Part shown: piece by piece, positions 1 to 5,732 of the stretch
Position numbering within the stretch: position 1 is the first letter of the stretch
Layout: every line of letters starts with the position of its first letter
Virus record (IMG/VR): IMGVR_UViG_2541047968_000001
Coordinates: 1 to 5,732 of that record
DNA length: 5,732 bases
Reading direction: 5' to 3' (one strand)
Source: a virus
Taxonomy: Duplodnaviria; Heunggongvirae; Uroviricota; Caudoviricetes
Program-made: the position numbers and the translations under genes
Notes under the pieces: generated by a model
What the model was told of the DNA's origin: nothing
What the model saw: only the letters and a program-made list of their open reading frames with translations
Database searches by the model: none

Positions 1-34
1 GATTCTGCCGCTGAAGATTTTATGAAGTCTCACG
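1..34 (+). repeat. Partial copy of an internal terminase large-subunit segment, identical to 2813-2846 and 5648-5681; identity ends at position 35 where Rz sequence begins
   Basis: Direct base-by-base comparison: window 1-34 matches 2813-2846 exactly and diverges at 35 (g here, t at 2847). In the terminase frame it reads [11 protein letters not shown]. Confidence 0.85.
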
Positions 35-62
35 GCTTTCCGCGTTTATCGTTATTCTGCTG

Positions 63-482
63 GTGGCCTGTGGAGCGCTGTGGATGGCAACAGACCATTA
101 CCGTGATAACGCGATTACCTACAAAGCGCAGCGCGATAAAAAAGCCAGAGAGCTGGAGCTGGCAAACGCCACCATTACTGATATGCAGGTGCGCCAGCGC
201 GATGTTGCTGCGCTCGATGCAAAATACTCGAGGGAATTAGCCGATGCGAGAGCTGAAAATGAAACTCTTCGCGCTGACGTTGCCGCTGGTCGTAAGCGCC
301 TGCAAGTCGCCGCCACCTGTGCAAAGTCAACGACCGGAGCCAGCAGCATGGGCGATGGAGAAAGCCCAAGACTTACAGCAGATGCTGAACTCAATTATTA
401 CCGTCTCCGAAGTGGAATCGACAAGATAACCGCGCAGGTTAACTACCTGCAGGAGTACATCAGGACGCAATGCCTGAAATAA
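63..482 (+). CDS. Rz: Rz-like i-spanin (inner-membrane spanin component), 5'-truncated: native start codon and first few codons replaced by the junction at 34/35
   Basis: Translation ...[44 protein letters not shown]... closely resembles lambda Rz as I recall it. The frame is open upstream to a TGA at 12-14 and encodes the membrane-anchor-like stretch [16 protein letters not shown], but has no ATG or GTG before GTG 63. Stop TAA at 480-482. Confidence 0.7.
244..429 (+). CDS. Rz1: Rz1-like o-spanin (outer-membrane lipoprotein), embedded in the +1 frame of Rz
   Basis: Lies wholly inside Rz in a different frame, the classic Rz/Rz1 arrangement. Has a signal-peptide-like N-terminus with lipobox VSAC and a proline-rich mature region ([13 protein letters not shown]). 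Start may be ATG 244 or ATG 259, which is preceded by a GAGAG Shine-Dalgarno-like motif. Confidence 0.65.
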
Positions 483-513
483 TTTTTTTGCAAATCACAA
501 AGTCAATTTAATG

Positions 514-536
514 AGCCTCGCGATGCGGGGCTTTTT
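514..536 (+). terminator. Putative intrinsic terminator downstream of Rz
   Basis: Stem 514-521 pairs with 525-532 (8 bp including one G-U), 3-nt loop, followed by TTTTT at 532-536. About 30 bp after the Rz stop. Confidence 0.45.
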
Positions 537-543
537 GCAATAA

Positions 544-568
544 ATGCGTACCGCAACGCATGTTTTTT
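544..568 (+). terminator. Second putative intrinsic terminator (tandem with 514-536)
   Basis: ATGCGT (544-549) pairs with ACGCAT (556-561), 6-nt loop, followed by GTTTTTT (562-568). The stem is short, so this is weaker. Confidence 0.35.
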
Positions 569-683
569 ACACCGAACCTGCCCCTTTGGAATGGGCCTTT
601 GAGGATACCAGTTAGTGCTGGCGAGCCTCGGTGGGCTGGTTTCCTATGCGGCAAAGGTTCATTTCAAATGGTAGGTAAACGTT

Positions 684-1205
684 ATGAATATCGTGCCACT
701 TAATTACAAAGGTGAAATTGTCAGTTTCAACACTGATGGTTGGATCAACGTCACAGGTGTTGCTGAGAGATTTGGAAAACGCATTGATAACTGGATGCGT
801 TTGGCAGAAACGCTTGAATACGTTCGTGCTTTAGACGAAGCGTTGACCGGGAAAGAATCTCAAATTTTACATCCCTCACAATCGAGGTATGTAAAAACCA
901 GCAAGGCACGAAAGGACAGGGGTGGTGGTACGTGGCTACATCCAAAACTTTCAGTTGCATTTGCCCGTTGGTGTGATGCTCGTTTTGCTGTGTGGTGCGA
1001 CCTGCACATTGATAGTCTGCTTCGCGGTGAACTGACTGAGCAGCAGAAATATGAGCAAGCATGTCGCATTCGCGATGACCGGAAATCAAAAGCCAGCAAT
1101 GGGGCAAGAGAGATGGCTCGCTGGCGATGGGATAAGCCGGTTATTGAAGCAAATGTTGAGTACTGGCGCGAGCAACTGCAGTTGACTCTCGATATCGCGT
1201 GCTGA
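684..1205 (+). CDS. KilA-N domain-containing protein (173 aa), likely accessory (moron) gene
   Basis: Intact ORF, ATG 684 with upstream AGGT, stop TGA 1203-1205. Motifs GWINVTGVAERFGKRIDNWMRLAETLEYVRAL and GGTWLHPKLSVAFARWCDARFAVW fit the KilA-N (APSES-like) DNA-binding fold as I recall it. G+C is visibly lower than in neighbouring genes (by-eye sample about 37% versus about 55% in the terminase gene). Confidence 0.65.
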   Translation: MNIVPLNYKGEIVSFNTDGWINVTGVAERFGKRIDNWMRLAETLEYVRALDEALTGKESQILHPSQSRYVKTSKARKDRGGGTWLHPKLSVAFARWCDARFAVWCDLHIDSLLRGELTEQQKYEQACRIRDDRKSKASNGAREMARWRWDKPVIEANVEYWREQLQLTLDIAC

Positions 1206-1815
1206 TGGCAAACGCAAAACTGCGTTATCTGAAAAATCAAAGCATTACGAGAACTGAGCAACGGCTATCCATTACAAAGCCCATCTACGGGTGGGCTTGA
1301 TAATGAAACCGGAATTTATTCTTGGCAACCAGTTACGGCAGTACCACGAAACAACCCAAGCCAGTAAGTGGGGAAATAACACTGGCAGCCACTGAAAGAT
1401 GAAGCTCCTGCCTTAAGGCAAAAAAGATTCTTTGTGGTGGCGGACTGATGGAAAGACATCGGTTATTGCAGAGGCCATTCAATGAGTGGTCTCGACAATG
1501 GCTTATACCCTACACGGGATAACTTAACTGATATCCCTTTTAAAGGATAAAGGTATTCAAGCCTGACACATCATGCGCTGTATCGTCGCCGTATTCCTGC
1601 ATTAACAGAGACCGCAGCCCGACGGGGAACTCCTCTGCGCGAGTGTGCGGAAATAATCAAAAACGATACACACCGGGGTTTACCGCGTTAACGGAGCGTG
1701 GCGTTGTCCCCTCATGGTCGCTCGTCCGGTGCGATGGTGGAAGAAACTGGATTTTGTTGCAACTGATAATCATTATCATTTTCTCGGGTCCTTTCCGGCG
1801 ATCCGGGCCGTTACG

Positions 1816-1827
1816 GGGCGGCGACCT
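1816..1827 (+). other. cosN: cosN 12-nt cohesive-end sequence GGGCGGCGACCT (staggered nick site of terminase)
   Basis: Exact match to the 12-nt lambda cohesive end, preceded by GTTACG as at the lambda right end. Confidence 0.8.
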
Positions 1828-1864
1828 CGCGGATTTTCACTATTTATGAAAATTTTCCGGGATT

Positions 1865-1875
1865 CATGTCCGGTT
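1865..1875 (-). promoter_or_regulatory. Candidate cosB R-element, inverted copy (CATGTCCGGTT on +, i.e. AACCGGACATG on -)
   Basis: Reverse complement of the 11-mer that occurs twice downstream. Its position between cosN and the small-subunit gene mirrors lambda R3. Confidence 0.4.
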
Positions 1876-1922
1876 TCTCTGCAAGTTAACCATATGAAAA
1901 ATATAAAAACATGCTTTCCATG

Positions 1923-1933
1923 AACCGGACATG
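1923..1933 (+). promoter_or_regulatory. Candidate cosB R-element AACCGGACATG
   Basis: Exact 11-bp repeat, separated from the inverted copy by an A/T-rich spacer (GAAAAATATAAAAAC) and from the next copy by 30 bp. Confidence 0.4.
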
Positions 1934-1952
1934 CGCAAAAAATAGACACTAA

Positions 1953-1963
1953 AACCGGACATG
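1953..1963 (+). promoter_or_regulatory. Candidate cosB R-element AACCGGACATG
   Basis: Exact repeat of 1923-1933, about 48 bp upstream of the small-subunit start, followed by the related ACCGGTTTT. Confidence 0.4.
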
Positions 1964-2010
1964 ACCGGTTTTGTTGTGATTGTGAGGTGAGAGTTTTTGC
2001 GAGGTGAGGA

Positions 2011-2520
2011 GTGGCTACGCAGACTGAAGTTGCCAGGCATTTAAGTCTGACCGATCGCCAGCTTCGCAGATTGCAGAAATTGCCGGGTGCCCCGATATCG
2101 AATAAGCGAGGGCAACTGGATCTGGATGCCTGGCGCGATTTTTACATATCGTATCTGAGAAGAAGTAAAAACGATGTGCCTGATGGCGATAGCGAAGACG
2201 ACTATGAGGAGAAATTGCTTATTGCCAGATGGGAACTGACAGCAGAACAGGCTGTTACACAGCAGTTAAAAAATGAGGTGTCAAAAGGAAAACTTATTGA
2301 CACCGGGTTCTGTATTTTTGCCCTCAGCAAGCTGGCAATGGCGTTATCCAGTACGCTTGATTCCATCCCTTTATCCATGCAGCGACAGTTTCCTGATTTA
2401 ACACCGCGCCATCTTGACCATCTGAAAACCCTTATTGCGAAGGGGGCAAATCAGTGTGCGCGGGCGGGGGATAAATTACCGGATTTACTCGATGAATATA
2501 TCAGAGCAACAACTGAATAA
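2011..2520 (+). CDS. nu1: Terminase small subunit (Nu1 homolog) with a divergent N-terminal DNA-binding domain
   Basis: The C-terminal half (GFCIFALSKLAMALSSTLDSIPLSMQRQFPDLTPRHLDHL...LPDLLDEYI) aligns with the lambda Nu1 C-terminus as I recall it; the N-terminal ~60 aa (MATQTEVARHLSLTDRQLRRL...) is helix-turn-helix-like but not lambda-like. GTG start at 2011 after GAGGTGAGGA; an in-frame TGA at 2005-2007 excludes a longer ORF. Stop TAA 2518-2520. Confidence 0.8.
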   Translation: MATQTEVARHLSLTDRQLRRLQKLPGAPISNKRGQLDLDAWRDFYISYLRRSKNDVPDGDSEDDYEEKLLIARWELTAEQAVTQQLKNEVSKGKLIDTGFCIFALSKLAMALSSTLDSIPLSMQRQFPDLTPRHLDHLKTLIAKGANQCARAGDKLPDLLDEYIRATTE

Positions 2521-4420
2521 TATGATGAGTGCTGTCACAACAGCATTACAGCCCCTGATAAGGGCATTGCCGGTGACGCCAGTTGAATGGGCTGATCAAA
2601 ATTATTATCTGCCTAAAGAATCTTCATATGGTGAGGGAGAATGGAAAACGCTGCCGTTCCAGATCGCCATCATGAACAGCATGGGGAATGATCAGATCCG
2701 GACTGTTAATCTGATTAAATCTGCCCGTGTTGGCTATACAAAGATGTTGCTGGGAGTCGCCGGGTATTTTATTGAGCATAAATCCCGAAACAGTCTGCTT
2801 TTTCAGCCCACGGATTCTGCCGCTGAAGATTTTATGAAGTCTCACGTGGAGGCGACGATTCGCGATGTTCCCTGCCTGAAAAAACTTTCTCCCTGGCTGG
2901 GACGTAAACATCGTGATAATACCATCACGCTGAAACGCTTTTCATCGGGTGTGGGCTTCTGGTGCCTGGGCGGCGCTGCCGCCAAAAACTACCGTGAAAA
3001 ATCCGTGGACGTGGTCTGCTATGACGAACTTTCCTCGTTCGAGCCGGATGTCGAAAAAGAGGGCTCGCCAACCCTGCTGGGGGATAAGCGTATTGAGGGC
3101 TCGGTATGGCCAAAATCCATTCGCGGCTCGACGCCTAAAATAAAAGGCTCCTGCCAGATCGAAAAAGCGGCCAACGAGTCGGCGCATTTCATGCGTTTTT
3201 ATGTGCCCTGCCCGCACTGTGGGGAGGCGCAGTATCTGAAATTTGGCGATGAGTCCACGCCTTTTGGCCTTAAATGGGAGAAGGACAGCCCCGAAAGCGT
3301 TTTCTACCTCTGTGAACATCATGGCTGCGTGATCTATCAGTCTGAGCTTGACCAGAGCAACGGGCGGTGGATCTGTGAAAACACGGGCATGTGGACCCGT
3401 GACGGCCTGACGTTTTTCAGCGCTGCGGGTAATGAAATTCCGCCGCCGCGCTCCATCACATTCCATATCTGGACGGCGTACAGTCCGTTCACCACCTGGG
3501 TACAGATTGTCTATGACTGGCTGGATGCACTGAAAGATCCCAACGGCCTGAAAACCTTTGTGAACACCACGCTGGGCGAGACCTGGGAAGAGGCCGTGGG
3601 CGAAAAACTCGATCACCAGGTGCTGATGGATAAGGTTGTGCGTTACACGGCTGCGGTGCCTTCCCGGGTGGTTTATCTGACGGCGGGCATTGACTCGCAG
3701 CGAAACCGTTTTGAGATGTATGTCTGGGGATGGGCTCCGGGAGAGGAAGCCTTTCTGGTGGATAAAATCATCATTATGGGGCGTCCCGATGAGGAAGAGA
3801 CGCTGTTACGTGTGGATGTGGCGATCAACAAAAAATACCGCCATGCAGACGGAACCGAAATGACCATTTCCCGTGTCTGCTGGGACACCGGAGGGATCGA
3901 TGGCGAAATTGTCTATCAGAGGTCAAAAAAACACGGTGTTTTCCGGGTGCTGCCGGTAAAAGGTGCATCTGTTTATGGCAAGCCGGTGATCACCATGCCA
4001 AAAACCCGCAATCAGCGGGGCGTGTATCTGTGCGAAGTGGGGACGGACACCGCAAAAGAAATTCTCTATGCCCGTATGAAAGCCGATCCCACGCCTGCGG
4101 ATGAAGCCACGTCGTATGCCATCCGTTTTCCTGATGATCCGGAGATTTTTTCGCAGACAGAGGCGCAGCAACTGGTCGCGGAAGAGCTTGTGGAGAAGTG
4201 GGAAAAAGGAAAGATGCGTCTGCTGTGGGATAACAAAAAGCGGCGTAACGAAGCGCTGGACTGCCTGGTGTATGCCTACGCGGCATTACGTGTGTCCGTG
4301 CAACGCTGGCAGCTTGATCTGGCTGTACTGGCAAAATCCCGGGAAGAAGAGACGACCCGGCCAACCCTTAAAGAACTGGCAGCGAAGCTGTCCGGAGGAG
4401 TGAATGGTTACAGTCGCTGA
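2492..4420 (+). CDS. A: Terminase large subunit (lambda gpA-like; ATPase/endonuclease)
   Basis: 642-aa product colinear with lambda gpA over its whole length as recalled: MNIS start, Walker A-like KSARVGYTK, CPHCGE, WTAYSPFTTWVQIV, FVNTTLGETWE, KKRRNEALDC. ATG 2492 matches the lambda MNIS start and overlaps the small-subunit gene by 29 bp; the track's 2435 start is a TTG extension. Confidence 0.93.
   Translation: MNISEQQLNNMMSAVTTALQPLIRALPVTPVEWADQNYYLPKESSYGEGEWKTLPFQIAIMNSMGNDQIRTVNLIKSARVGYTKMLLGVAGYFIEHKSRNSLLFQPTDSAAEDFMKSHVEATIRDVPCLKKLSPWLGRKHRDNTITLKRFSSGVGFWCLGGAAAKNYREKSVDVVCYDELSSFEPDVEKEGSPTLLGDKRIEGSVWPKSIRGSTPKIKGSCQIEKAANESAHFMRFYVPCPHCGEAQYLKFGDESTPFGLKWEKDSPESVFYLCEHHGCVIYQSELDQSNGRWICENTGMWTRDGLTFFSAAGNEIPPPRSITFHIWTAYSPFTTWVQIVYDWLDALKDPNGLKTFVNTTLGETWEEAVGEKLDHQVLMDKVVRYTAAVPSRVVYLTAGIDSQRNRFEMYVWGWAPGEEAFLVDKIIIMGRPDEEETLLRVDVAINKKYRHADGTEMTISRVCWDTGGIDGEIVYQRSKKHGVFRVLPVKGASVYGKPVITMPKTRNQRGVYLCEVGTDTAKEILYARMKADPTPADEATSYAIRFPDDPEIFSQTEAQQLVAEELVEKWEKGKMRLLWDNKKRRNEALDCLVYAYAALRVSVQRWQLDLAVLAKSREEETTRPTLKELAAKLSGGVNGYSR
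2803..2897 (+). repeat. Native copy of the 95-bp terminase segment that recurs at 5638-5732 (and in part at 1-34)
   Basis: Exact 95/95 identity with 5638-5732 by direct comparison. Encodes terminase residues about 104-135 ([32 protein letters not shown]). Confidence 0.9.
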
Positions 4421-4610
4421 ACTGCAGGCGCTGCGTCAGGCGCGCCTTGATTTATTAACCGGTAAACGGGTGGTGTCTGTCCAGAAAGATGGTCGCAGAA
4501 TTGAATATACGGCGGCCTCTCTGGATGAGCTTAACCGGGCGATCAATGATGCTGAGTTGGTACTGGGGACAACCCGCCGTCGCCGTCGTCCGCTGGGAGT
4601 GAGGTTATGA
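4404..4610 (+). CDS. W: gpW-like head-tail joining / head completion protein (68 aa)
   Basis: Same length as lambda gpW and a conserved core (LTGKRVVSVQKDGRRIEYTAASL..., C-terminal RRRRRP). GGAGG precedes ATG 4404. Overlaps the terminase stop by 17 bp and the portal start by ATGA. Confidence 0.88.
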   Translation: MVTVAELQALRQARLDLLTGKRVVSVQKDGRRIEYTAASLDELNRAINDAELVLGTTRRRRRPLGVRL

Positions 4611-5732
4611 AACGAAAGCCTGTCCTGATTGATGTGAACGGCGTTCCGCTTCGGGAGAGCCTCAGCTACAACGGGGGCGGTGCAGGATTTGGCGGGCAAA
4701 TGGCAGAGTGGTTGCCACCCTCGCAGAGTGCCGATGCGGCCCTGCTGCCCGCGTTGCGTCTGGGGAATGCCCGTGCAGATGATCTGGTGCGCAATAACGG
4801 AATAGCGGCCAATGCGGTGGCCCTGCATAAGGATCACATTGTCGGGCATATGTTTCTGATTAGCTACCGTCCGAACTGGCGCTGGCTGGGGATGCGGGAG
4901 ACCGCGGCAAAAAGTTTTGTCGATGAGGTGGAGGCGGCCTGGTCAGAATACGCAGAAGGGATGTTTGGTGAGATCGACGTGGAAGGGAAACGCACGTTTA
5001 CGGAATTTATCCGTGAAGGTGTGGGCGTTCATGCGTTTAACGGCGAAATCTTTGTGCAGCCGGTCTGGGATACGGAGAGCACGCAACTGTTTCGTACGCG
5101 TTTTAAAGCCGTGAGTCCGAAACGGGTGGACACGCCAGGACACGGTATCGGGAACCGTTTTCTGCGGGCCGGGGTGGAGGTTGATCGATATGGCCGTGCC
5201 GTTGCGTACCATATCTGTGAGGATGATTTTCCTCGCTCCGGGAGTGGACGATGGGAACGGATCCCGCGTGAACTTCCCACCGGGCGTCCGGCCATGCTGC
5301 ATATTTTCGAGCCGGTGGAGGACGGGCAGACCCGTGGGGCCAACCAGTTTTACAGCGTCATGGAACGGCTGAAGATGCTCGATTCCCTGCAGGCAACACA
5401 GCTTCAGTCGGCCATTGTTAAAGCCATGTATGCAGCGACGATTGAAAGTGAACTTGATACCGAAAAGGCCTTTGAATATATCGCCGGTGCGCCACAGGAG
5501 CAGAAGGATAATCCGCTTATTAATATTCTGGAGAAGTTTTCCAGCTGGTATGACACGAATAACGTGACACTGGGCGGTGTCAAAATTCCGCACCTTTTCC
5601 CCGGTGATGATCTGAAACTTCAGACCGCGCAGGATTCTCAGCCCACGGATTCTGCCGCTGAAGATTTTATGAAGTCTCACGTGGAGGCGACGATTCGCGA
5701 TGTTCCCTGCCTGAAAAAACTTTCTCCCTGGC
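4607..5732 (+). CDS. B: Portal protein (lambda gpB-like); native sequence runs only to 5637, after which the frame continues in frame into the repeated terminase segment to the window end
   Basis: Matches to lambda gpB as recalled: GFGGQ, LLP..GNARADDLVRNNG, KRTFT..IREGV..HAFNGE.FVQ, FEPVEDGQTRGAN.FYSVME..KMLD.LQ.TQLQSAIVKAMYAATIESELDT, LQTAQD. ATG 4607 follows GGGAGTGAGG. From codon 344 on, the translation is terminase sequence ([13 protein letters not shown]...). Confidence 0.85.
   Translation, partial: MKRKPVLIDVNGVPLRESLSYNGGGAGFGGQMAEWLPPSQSADAALLPALRLGNARADDLVRNNGIAANAVALHKDHIVGHMFLISYRPNWRWLGMRETAAKSFVDEVEAAWSEYAEGMFGEIDVEGKRTFTEFIREGVGVHAFNGEIFVQPVWDTESTQLFRTRFKAVSPKRVDTPGHGIGNRFLRAGVEVDRYGRAVAYHICEDDFPRSGSGRWERIPRELPTGRPAMLHIFEPVEDGQTRGANQFYSVMERLKMLDSLQATQLQSAIVKAMYAATIESELDTEKAFEYIAGAPQEQKDNPLINILEKFSSWYDTNNVTLGGVKIPHLFPGDDLKLQTAQDSQPTDSAAEDFMKSHVEATIRDVPCLKKLSPW
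5638..5732 (+). repeat. Second full copy of the 95-bp terminase segment, joined to portal sequence at 5637/5638; reaches the window edge so may extend further
   Basis: Exact identity with 2803-2897. The preceding base differs (c at 5637, t at 2802), which places the junction there. Confidence 0.9.

Follow-up and report, generated by a model that had tools for sequence, protein, structure and literature searches.

Phages P22 and phi80 carry behind the spanin gene Rz a gene, rha, whose genetics go back to the 1980s. In the phi80 record rha bears the note 'DNA synthesis inhibition in IHF- hosts', and a review-type text, referring to Mozola and Friedman (1985) and Henthorn and Friedman (1995), places P22 rha among the late-operon genes and calls its product harmful to lytic growth in hosts without IHF (PMC4936722). 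P22 rha (orf201) starts 150 nucleotides (nt) after gene 15 (Rz), and the gap holds a terminator variant, a hairpin and a structured leader of the type here called A; phi80 rha follows Rz behind a terminator identical to the one described below and has the same leader. The DNA analysed here, positions 1 to 5,732 of IMG/VR virus record IMGVR_UViG_2541047968_000001 (5,732 nt; 'the window'), is a piece of a lambda-like prophage, with 99.1% identity over its whole length to E. coli strain NCTC9112, and carries a KilA-N gene (684–1205, + strand) right after Rz/Rz1. Enterobacterial lambdoid phages have at this position a slot that can be filled by any of at least 14 alleles, of which this gene is one, and the slot, as judged by sequence, is the rha locus of P22 and phi80. 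P22 Rha has an ORF11CD3 C-terminal domain in common with the protein family of the window, while the N-terminal domains (Phage_pRha in P22 and phi80 Rha, KilA-N here) are unrelated in sequence. The best reading of the locus, which we consider reasonably probable, is that of a late-operon slot gene with throttled translation.

Exchange of the gene is seen directly between otherwise matching flanks. The same Rz and the same cos/Nu1 sequences enclose an open reading frame (ORF) of the T5orf172/GIY-YIG family in strain MDP9-27 and a Rha ORF in strain 4. In a three-way alignment with these T5orf172 and Rha alleles the sequences are near-identical up to 536, the end of a T-run, and again from ~1331 through cos into Nu1; between these points they are unalignable save for a half-conserved leader. 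BLAST comparison with 15 representatives placed the left joint at 536 in every differing case and the right joint at 1325–1335, and the exchangeable cassette (537–1330, + strand) thus delimited by alignment and BLAST consists of leader, ORF and a ~125-nt 3′ tail. Homology of Rz with every cassette type reaches 536, so that a terminator supplies the last conserved bases before the variable part, and the right flank is a conserved non-coding block (1331–1551, + strand) that is 96–97% identical 3′ of unrelated cassette ORFs, in P22, and across packaging modules. Because conserved sequences bound the cassette (to 536 and from ~1331), allele replacement by homologous recombination is possible. Recombination joints are apparent from the sequence comparisons at the terminator, the start codon, a domain boundary within the ORF and the conserved 3′ block.

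The breadth of this exchange was assessed by searching IMG/VR for exact matches to the 30-nt terminator sequence, which is present in at least 120 viral contigs; 106 of these loci had enough downstream sequence to be classified. An ORF starts ~145–151 nt after the terminator in 105 of the 106, with one locus at 188 nt. KilA-N proteins of four architectures (KilA-N alone, with ORF11CD3, with P63C, and the window type) occupy 54 loci and Phage_pRha proteins of five types, with or without ORF11CD3, a further 36; T5orf172 proteins are found in 10, a 198-amino acid (aa) protein without known family in four, and an HNH_3+AP2 protein and an unrelated ORF in one each. The window's own allele accounts for nine of the 106. 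KilA-N cassettes were seen with four packaging modules (lambda-like cos, HK97-like, P22-like pac and that of Shiga toxin (Stx) phages), examples being the HK97-like phage HK544, the P22-like phages Emek and BIS08P22, and Stx phages. Since the packaging modules differ, the cassette is carried along with the lysis genes, at the 3′ end of Rz, and not with cos. A preliminary description made from these letters had placed the gene between the spanin genes and cos and had taken the lysis-to-packaging interval for a site of accessory cargo. The position is borne out by Pfam matches to Rz and Rz1 on the 5′ side and by cosN (1816–1827) on the 3′ side, and the accessory, exchangeable nature of the cargo by the T5orf172 and Rha genes swapped in between the same flanks; 'inserted between spanin and cos' is misleading as a framing, as the cassette follows the end of Rz into all four packaging modules.

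As a gene, the cargo of the window is routine: it encodes an already known, annotated and widespread prophage KilA-N protein. The product is 100% identical to gp62 of HK544, which occupies the same slot, and the E. coli genomes S88 and NCTC9112 list it here as 'KilA-N domain-containing protein' (WP_001028465.1). The segment 483–1260 is matched in part by 1,229 of 5,426 complete E. coli genomes, and in 138 the match extends over 80% of it or more; the gene bears the same annotation there. The ORF (173 aa) matches the Pfam KilA-N profile (PF04383) over residues 7–114 (nt 702–1025; profile positions 4–106 of 107) with 77.5 bits (gathering score 23.8; expect value (E) 8.2e-22), which upholds the family named in the preliminary description, and all 35 aligned homologues match the same profile. 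PHROG 129 ('transcriptional regulator') is also matched (3e-57). The protein had further been called a standalone KilA-N protein, which does not hold, as a C-terminal helical hairpin related to ORF11CD3 (PF10549) follows the first domain. In the window protein the ORF11CD3 match (residues 122–169) is below the cut-off (16.2 bits against 25; E 0.013); the family is matched at E ≤ 0.001 by 30 of 35 full-length homologues (best 1.9e-11), and PHROG 518 (Rha-like) matches residues 118–170 of the window protein (4e-9). An AlphaFold2 model (mean predicted local distance difference test score 88.9) comprises an alpha/beta domain (1–113) and a two-helix hairpin (116–169; nt 1029–1190). Its top PDB fold matches are the APSES domains of PCG2 and Mbp1 and are weak (E 0.1–0.3; template modelling score 0.37–0.38 on the target). 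These would be in line with the relationship to APSES given in the Pfam description of the KilA-N family. Sequence search of the PDB gave no match for the protein, and NCBIfam holds no family for it. KilA-N, Phage_pRha, P22_AR_N, ANT, Bro-N and ORF11CD3 have been placed in one domain-swapping 'Bro network' (PMC10111431), and as part of the reading favoured above, and with the same reasonable probability, 684–1205 would encode a two-domain DNA-binding protein of this network, with a KilA-N domain and a diverged ORF11CD3 helical hairpin.

Purifying selection clearly acts on this protein. The ratio of nonsynonymous to synonymous divergence (dN/dS) is 0.155 in comparison with a diverged allele, and the full architecture is retained at 50–60% identity across genera, to Pseudomonas. 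Against the same diverged allele, synonymous divergence (dS) in the N-terminal domain is 1.42 and the last 59 codons (1026–1205) differ at one synonymous site, which marks the junction of the two domains, within the ORF, as a site of past recombination. Pseudomonas prophages carry orthologues of the same KilA-N+ORF11CD3 architecture (53–58% identity) at quite different positions, one as the first gene divergent from an S24 repressor and another inside a tail operon, both without the enterobacterial leader. At these loci the leader models gave no match and structure was not in excess, and the leader therefore belongs to the enterobacterial slot and not to the protein family.

The preliminary description had also called the gene compositionally distinct from its neighbours. 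Its G+C content (GC; 47.5%) is indeed below that of Rz (53.6%) and of the whole window (51.5%), and the 200-nt segment with the lowest GC of the sequence (41%, 701–900) lies within it, but the value equals that of Nu1 (47.3%), flanking non-coding DNA has 43–48%, and the codon log-likelihood of the ORF falls within the range of its neighbours. The dip is limited to the N-terminal domain (45.3%; 39.5% at third codon positions), and the C-terminal third has 51.7%.

The 201-nt gap between the Rz stop codon and the KilA-N ORF is filled by a highly structured leader. This is ~135 nt long and consists of a small hairpin followed by a ~100-nt hairpin ending near the ATG. The latter, long and imperfect (576–676, + strand), was identified by folding, covariance model and covariation, and has a predicted energy of −49.2 kcal/mol (z-score −4.8; none of 200 shuffles equally stable). 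The 150 nt from terminator to ATG fall into at least four sequence types (A–D, the window having A), with one predicted architecture common to all, and these types are shuffled relative to the ORFs they precede (the window-type ORF has a type A leader in eight loci and a type C leader in one). In type A the basal helix pairs ACCUGCC (576–582) with GGUAGGU (670–676), where the Shine-Dalgarno region lies, 8 nt ahead of the ATG; for types B and C the pairing is of CCUUU with AAAGG. A covariance model built from type-C leaders only recovers types A, B and D at 38–58 bits, matching the window at 549–686 with 42.5 bits (E 3e-8) and P22 with 48.6 bits, and two covariance models give 129–133 bits for the phi80 leader. 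For a MAFFT alignment of 11 leaders, RNAalifold predicted 23 pairs, eight with compensatory changes; 92.8% of alignment cells are paired versus 83.9% after shuffling, and the covariation score is 0.336 versus 0.214 shuffled (0 of 500 as high; slid controls ≤0.134). In a model-fitted alignment of 41 distinct sequences, both sides change in 26 of 34 pairs and the score is 0.465 versus 0.203 shuffled (slid controls ≤0.11). G-U pairs are frequent and reverse-strand scores far weaker, which points to a + strand RNA and not a DNA cruciform. No Rfam family was reached by the leader. The only match, under a permissive threshold, was STnc470 (18.9 bits; gathering score 80), which we attribute to chance because the literature puts that small RNA between STM0081 and STM0082, an unrelated locus.

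The leader also marks the start codons of the known rha genes. The conserved ATG at its end is likely the true start of both phi80 and P22 rha, and the annotated GTG likely wrong, as compared sequences suggest. The annotated GTG starts lie in the 3′ arm of the leader hairpin (43739–43777 in phi80; 2076–2147 in P22). An in-leader GTG start was considered for the slot as a whole and discarded: some leader types alone leave the extension in frame, and stop codons interrupt it in type B and in the window.

For a sister phage there is experimental evidence of an RNA from this leader: P22F, an 89-nt P22 RNA detected in P22-infected cells and given as having 'no known function' (PMC13397905, 2026), maps to it. 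P22F is near-identical to window 590–668 (the upper hairpin), differs in its last ~10 nt, over the Shine-Dalgarno region, and ends 6 nt before the rha start codon. A second small RNA of P22, P22G, likewise listed with 'no known function' (PMC13397905), overlaps the block at window 1333–1478; as a structured RNA the block (1333–1480) is not above chance (fold z-score −1.5).

The whole P22 genome has a single leader match, at rha, and other phages have the motif elsewhere too. It precedes ant of the Stx phage 933W between R and Rz (8722–8857; 107.7 bits; the match reaches the ATG), in two E. coli prophages a P22_AR_N(+ORF11CD3) gene that likewise sits between R and Rz (1627–1766), phi80 gp49 (45239–45354) in a second module between Rz and cos, and, in one viral contig, a 54-aa HNH/AP2-like remnant located between Q and the holin gene (11112–11244, − strand). 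We tentatively propose, with somewhat less than even confidence, that the leader may be an uncatalogued family of cis-regulatory RNA gating, within lambdoid late operons, the translation of a hypervariable group of genes for DNA-binding and nuclease-like proteins (KilA-N, Rha, P22_AR_N, T5orf172 and HNH+AP2), that leader and ORF may form a portable module, and that P22F may be a processing product of it. If so, the module has settled in intergenic sites of at least three kinds (Q–holin, endolysin–Rz and Rz–packaging) and would correspond, in lambdoid phages, to the homing endonuclease genes of T4 with their hairpin control.

This distribution might instead be that of a selfish mobile cassette, made up of free-standing homing endonuclease-type genes and their nuclease-dead, DNA-binding derivatives, in which the leader keeps a potentially toxic product low and the phage gains nothing. 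HNH_3+AP2 and GIY-YIG-related T5orf172 ORFs do occupy the same slot behind the same leader, modules of leader plus ORF sit at all three kinds of site just named (at the Rz–packaging site twice in phi80), and ribosome-binding-site hairpins control I-TevI, I-TevII, I-TevIII and segB of T4 and mobE of Aeh1 (PMC2988022). Profile searches, however, recognised no nuclease motif in the KilA-N+ORF11CD3 protein, the low dN/dS reported above and an architecture kept at 50–60% identity across genera speak against it, and flanking homology explains the exchange without a double-strand break; we regard selfish spread as quite improbable.

How the gene is transcribed bears on the remaining alternatives. The first hairpin after Rz (513–533, with a T-run to 536; + strand) has the stem GAGCCTCGC/GCGGGGCTT, a GAT loop, T5 and a predicted energy of −14.6 kcal/mol (z-score −3.4); the annotations of HK544 and phi80 give it as a rho-independent terminator. 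The second (544–561, + strand; ATGCGT/ACGCAT with a 6-nt loop, then G and T6 to 568), picked up by a consensus terminator scan, has −6.9 kcal/mol (z-score −1.5). A hairpin at this position is kept in all leader types, but the T-run is present only in the window's variant of type A and not in P22's copy, so the second hairpin reads as a leader element and not as a conserved second terminator. Of the 'tandem terminators' of the preliminary description, therefore, the first stands as strong and conserved and the second does not, being weak and with a variant-specific T-run. A simple consensus scan found no sigma-70-like promoter on the + strand in 1–2100, and hence none between terminator and ORF; the two promoter-like sites in 1–2100 are both on the − strand, against 2.4 expected by chance. 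No + strand terminator was found from 1206 to cosN; the nearest ones (1857 and 1950) already lie in the cos region.

The same description had read the gene as an independently expressed moron, and such a gene would have its own promoter, be insulated by the terminator from the late operon, be expressed in the lysogen and benefit the host, for example by phage exclusion or abortion. What could be cited in favour is the strong terminator directly upstream, a GC dip that is mild but real, with the lowest-GC segment in the gene, and cargo that is exchangeable and has orthologues at other prophage positions. A KilA-N-like domain is also present in the abortive-infection protein BstA (PMC8585504), and in PADLOC-DB v2 the sole match of the window protein, weak and at domain level, is to the candidate system PDC-S22 (E 1.2e-5, involving the KilA-N part of a 281-position profile); no complete defence-system model in that database was matched. 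Yet the + strand of 483–683 has no promoter-like site, no + strand terminator lies between ORF and cos, and the gap where a promoter might sit is occupied by a covarying hairpin predicted to pair with the ribosome-binding site. Replacement polymorphism, as expected of morons, is present (the T5orf172 and Rha swaps; bor in 933W), and a promoter and a terminator belonging to the gene were not found. The homologous gene of P22 and phi80 is reported as a late-operon gene regulated through IHF (PMC4936722; note in the phi80 record), and the P22F leader RNA is recorded in infection (PMC13397905). Independent expression was thus not supported and is, in our judgement, unlikely.

In lambda, Q-modified polymerase reads through terminators, so a terminator upstream does not imply separate expression. 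For the terminators inside late operons of P22-like phages two roles have been suggested, trimming of transcription or a halt to transcripts lacking antitermination (PMC8022706). For the late-operon gene with throttled translation preferred here, the unit would be ordered as conserved terminator, small hairpin, long covarying hairpin with the ribosome-binding site, ORF and short tail. The KilA-N gene would be transcribed within the Q-antiterminated late transcript, through the terminator, which would shut out unmodified polymerase. Pairing of the leader with the Shine-Dalgarno sequence would hold translation down for as long as the hairpin is neither opened nor processed, and processing by RNase III or RNase E, a protein, or an RNA might all bring about its release. 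By analogy with Rha, the protein may act late in lytic growth, binding DNA and modulating replication or transcription.

A third alternative assigns the protein a different task, that of a late antirepressor inactivating the repressors of co-resident lambdoid prophages, or of its own, and so locking in or spreading induction. P22 rha is annotated 'anti-repressor' and the occupant of the sister slot of 933W is 'ant', ORF11CD3, P22_AR_N, ANT, Bro-N, KilA-N and Phage_pRha belong to the domain-swapping network cited above (PMC10111431), and trans-acting antirepressors coordinate induction of Salmonella prophages (PMC3121763, as cited in PMC7067206). These annotations are based on similarity and not on assay, though, and those antirepressors that have been characterised act early, under the control of LexA or Mnt/Arc, and do not belong to late operons. 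What is reported for Rha (PMC4936722; phi80 record) is that it inhibits phage growth and DNA synthesis in hosts deficient in IHF, and not that it induces prophages. We give this possibility little credence.

Several points weigh against the late-operon account with its gated translation. The promoter scan was of a simple sigma-70 consensus only. Rha biology is known second-hand, and the analogy with Rha crosses a domain swap between unrelated N-terminal domains. Orthologues in early and tail operons of Pseudomonas prophages, without the leader, make timing and control properties of the slot and not of the protein. Of the covariation tests, the one on 41 sequences used an alignment fitted to the model, which flatters its numbers, and the one on the MAFFT alignment used a structure predicted from that same alignment. 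Pairing of the Shine-Dalgarno sequence in the window is 0.86, against 0.74 ± 0.15 in shuffles, of which 21 of 100 are as high. Core pairing is above shuffles only in leader types B and C (2–7 of 100), not in type D, and mean pairing at −15 to −5 of the KilA-N start is the same as for other genes of the window and for shuffles. We infer occlusion of the ribosome-binding site from the conserved architecture, since the window's own pairing statistic is not significant.

Direct control by IHF has no sequence support here, because matches to the IHF consensus WATCAANNNNTTR with at most one mismatch (two in the window, against 4.6 expected) are below expectation and none is in the leader. One match to the consensus is exact (AATCAAAGCATTA, 1235–1247, 30 nt past the ORF stop); it is not above chance for the window, yet deserves mention in view of the dependence of Rha biology on IHF.

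On either side of the cassette the window is that of a lambda-like phage. Rz (i-spanin; 35–482 with an ORF of 63–482, + strand; Pfam Phage_lysis, 3.4e-42) lacks its first codons, because a fragment of the large terminase gene is joined to it at 34/35, and Rz1 is embedded in it (244–429, + strand; Pfam Rz1, 2.3e-20). Downstream of the KilA-N gene, 1206–1816 (~610 nt) has no convincing small ORF, and 1331–1551 has no + strand ORF of more than 36 aa. The lambda-type packaging site, outside the cassette, has the cosN cohesive end GGGCGGCGACCT (1816–1827, + strand), read from the sequence and matching the ends of phi80, whose genome aligns by BLAST from 1816 with its left end and to 1827 with its right end. 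Just 3′ of cosN (1865–1969), ACCGGACATG occurs three times exactly and once with one mismatch, on both strands (0.36 expected); these ACCGGACATG copies are probably cosB binding sites for the small terminase subunit. Nu1 (2011–2520; Pfam, 1e-18) is followed by the large terminase, W and portal genes. The window ends (1–34 and 5635–5732) are copies of an internal large-terminase segment (2813–2846 and 2800–2897, respectively); their junctions with Rz (34/35) and with the portal gene (~5634) are either an assembly artefact or a rearrangement, and the findings on the KilA-N gene are unaffected.

The cassette system and its leader are in part a new description of the rha locus, the leader being read as an uncatalogued example of a control element of known kind. 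One late-operon slot is reliably reused, with at least 14 alleles, one terminator and one leader family, and this offers a testable account of how potentially growth-inhibiting DNA-binding genes might ride in an essential late transcript. P22F gains a context as part of a covarying leader with the ribosome-binding site that is found in many phages, including Stx phage 933W before ant, and a likely mis-annotation of the start codons of phi80 and P22 rha is corrected.

Among known systems beyond Rha, the fungal APSES proteins (Mbp1, PCG2) resemble the N-terminal domain by a weak fold match, and their partners and biology differ. BstA is likewise a prophage protein with an N-terminal KilA-N-type domain and a second domain, but BstA-BTP1 has residues to ~307 and its C-terminal domain is unrelated (PMC8585504). 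The T4 homing endonuclease and late genes I-TevI, I-TevII, I-TevIII, segB, soc and e, and mobE, have a stable Shine-Dalgarno-pairing hairpin within a long polycistronic transcript, there too before accessory genes that target DNA and may be toxic (PMC2988022), and the same arrangement is predicted for the slot gene; in T4 a late promoter inside the hairpin lifts the block, whereas no promoter was seen here, and the sequences are not related. Closer to the slot itself, 933W has bor after Rz instead of a slot gene and ant in the sister slot from R to Rz, and KilA of phage 2851 (165 aa), which has the slot's leader in front of it, represents another KilA-N+ORF11CD3 allele.

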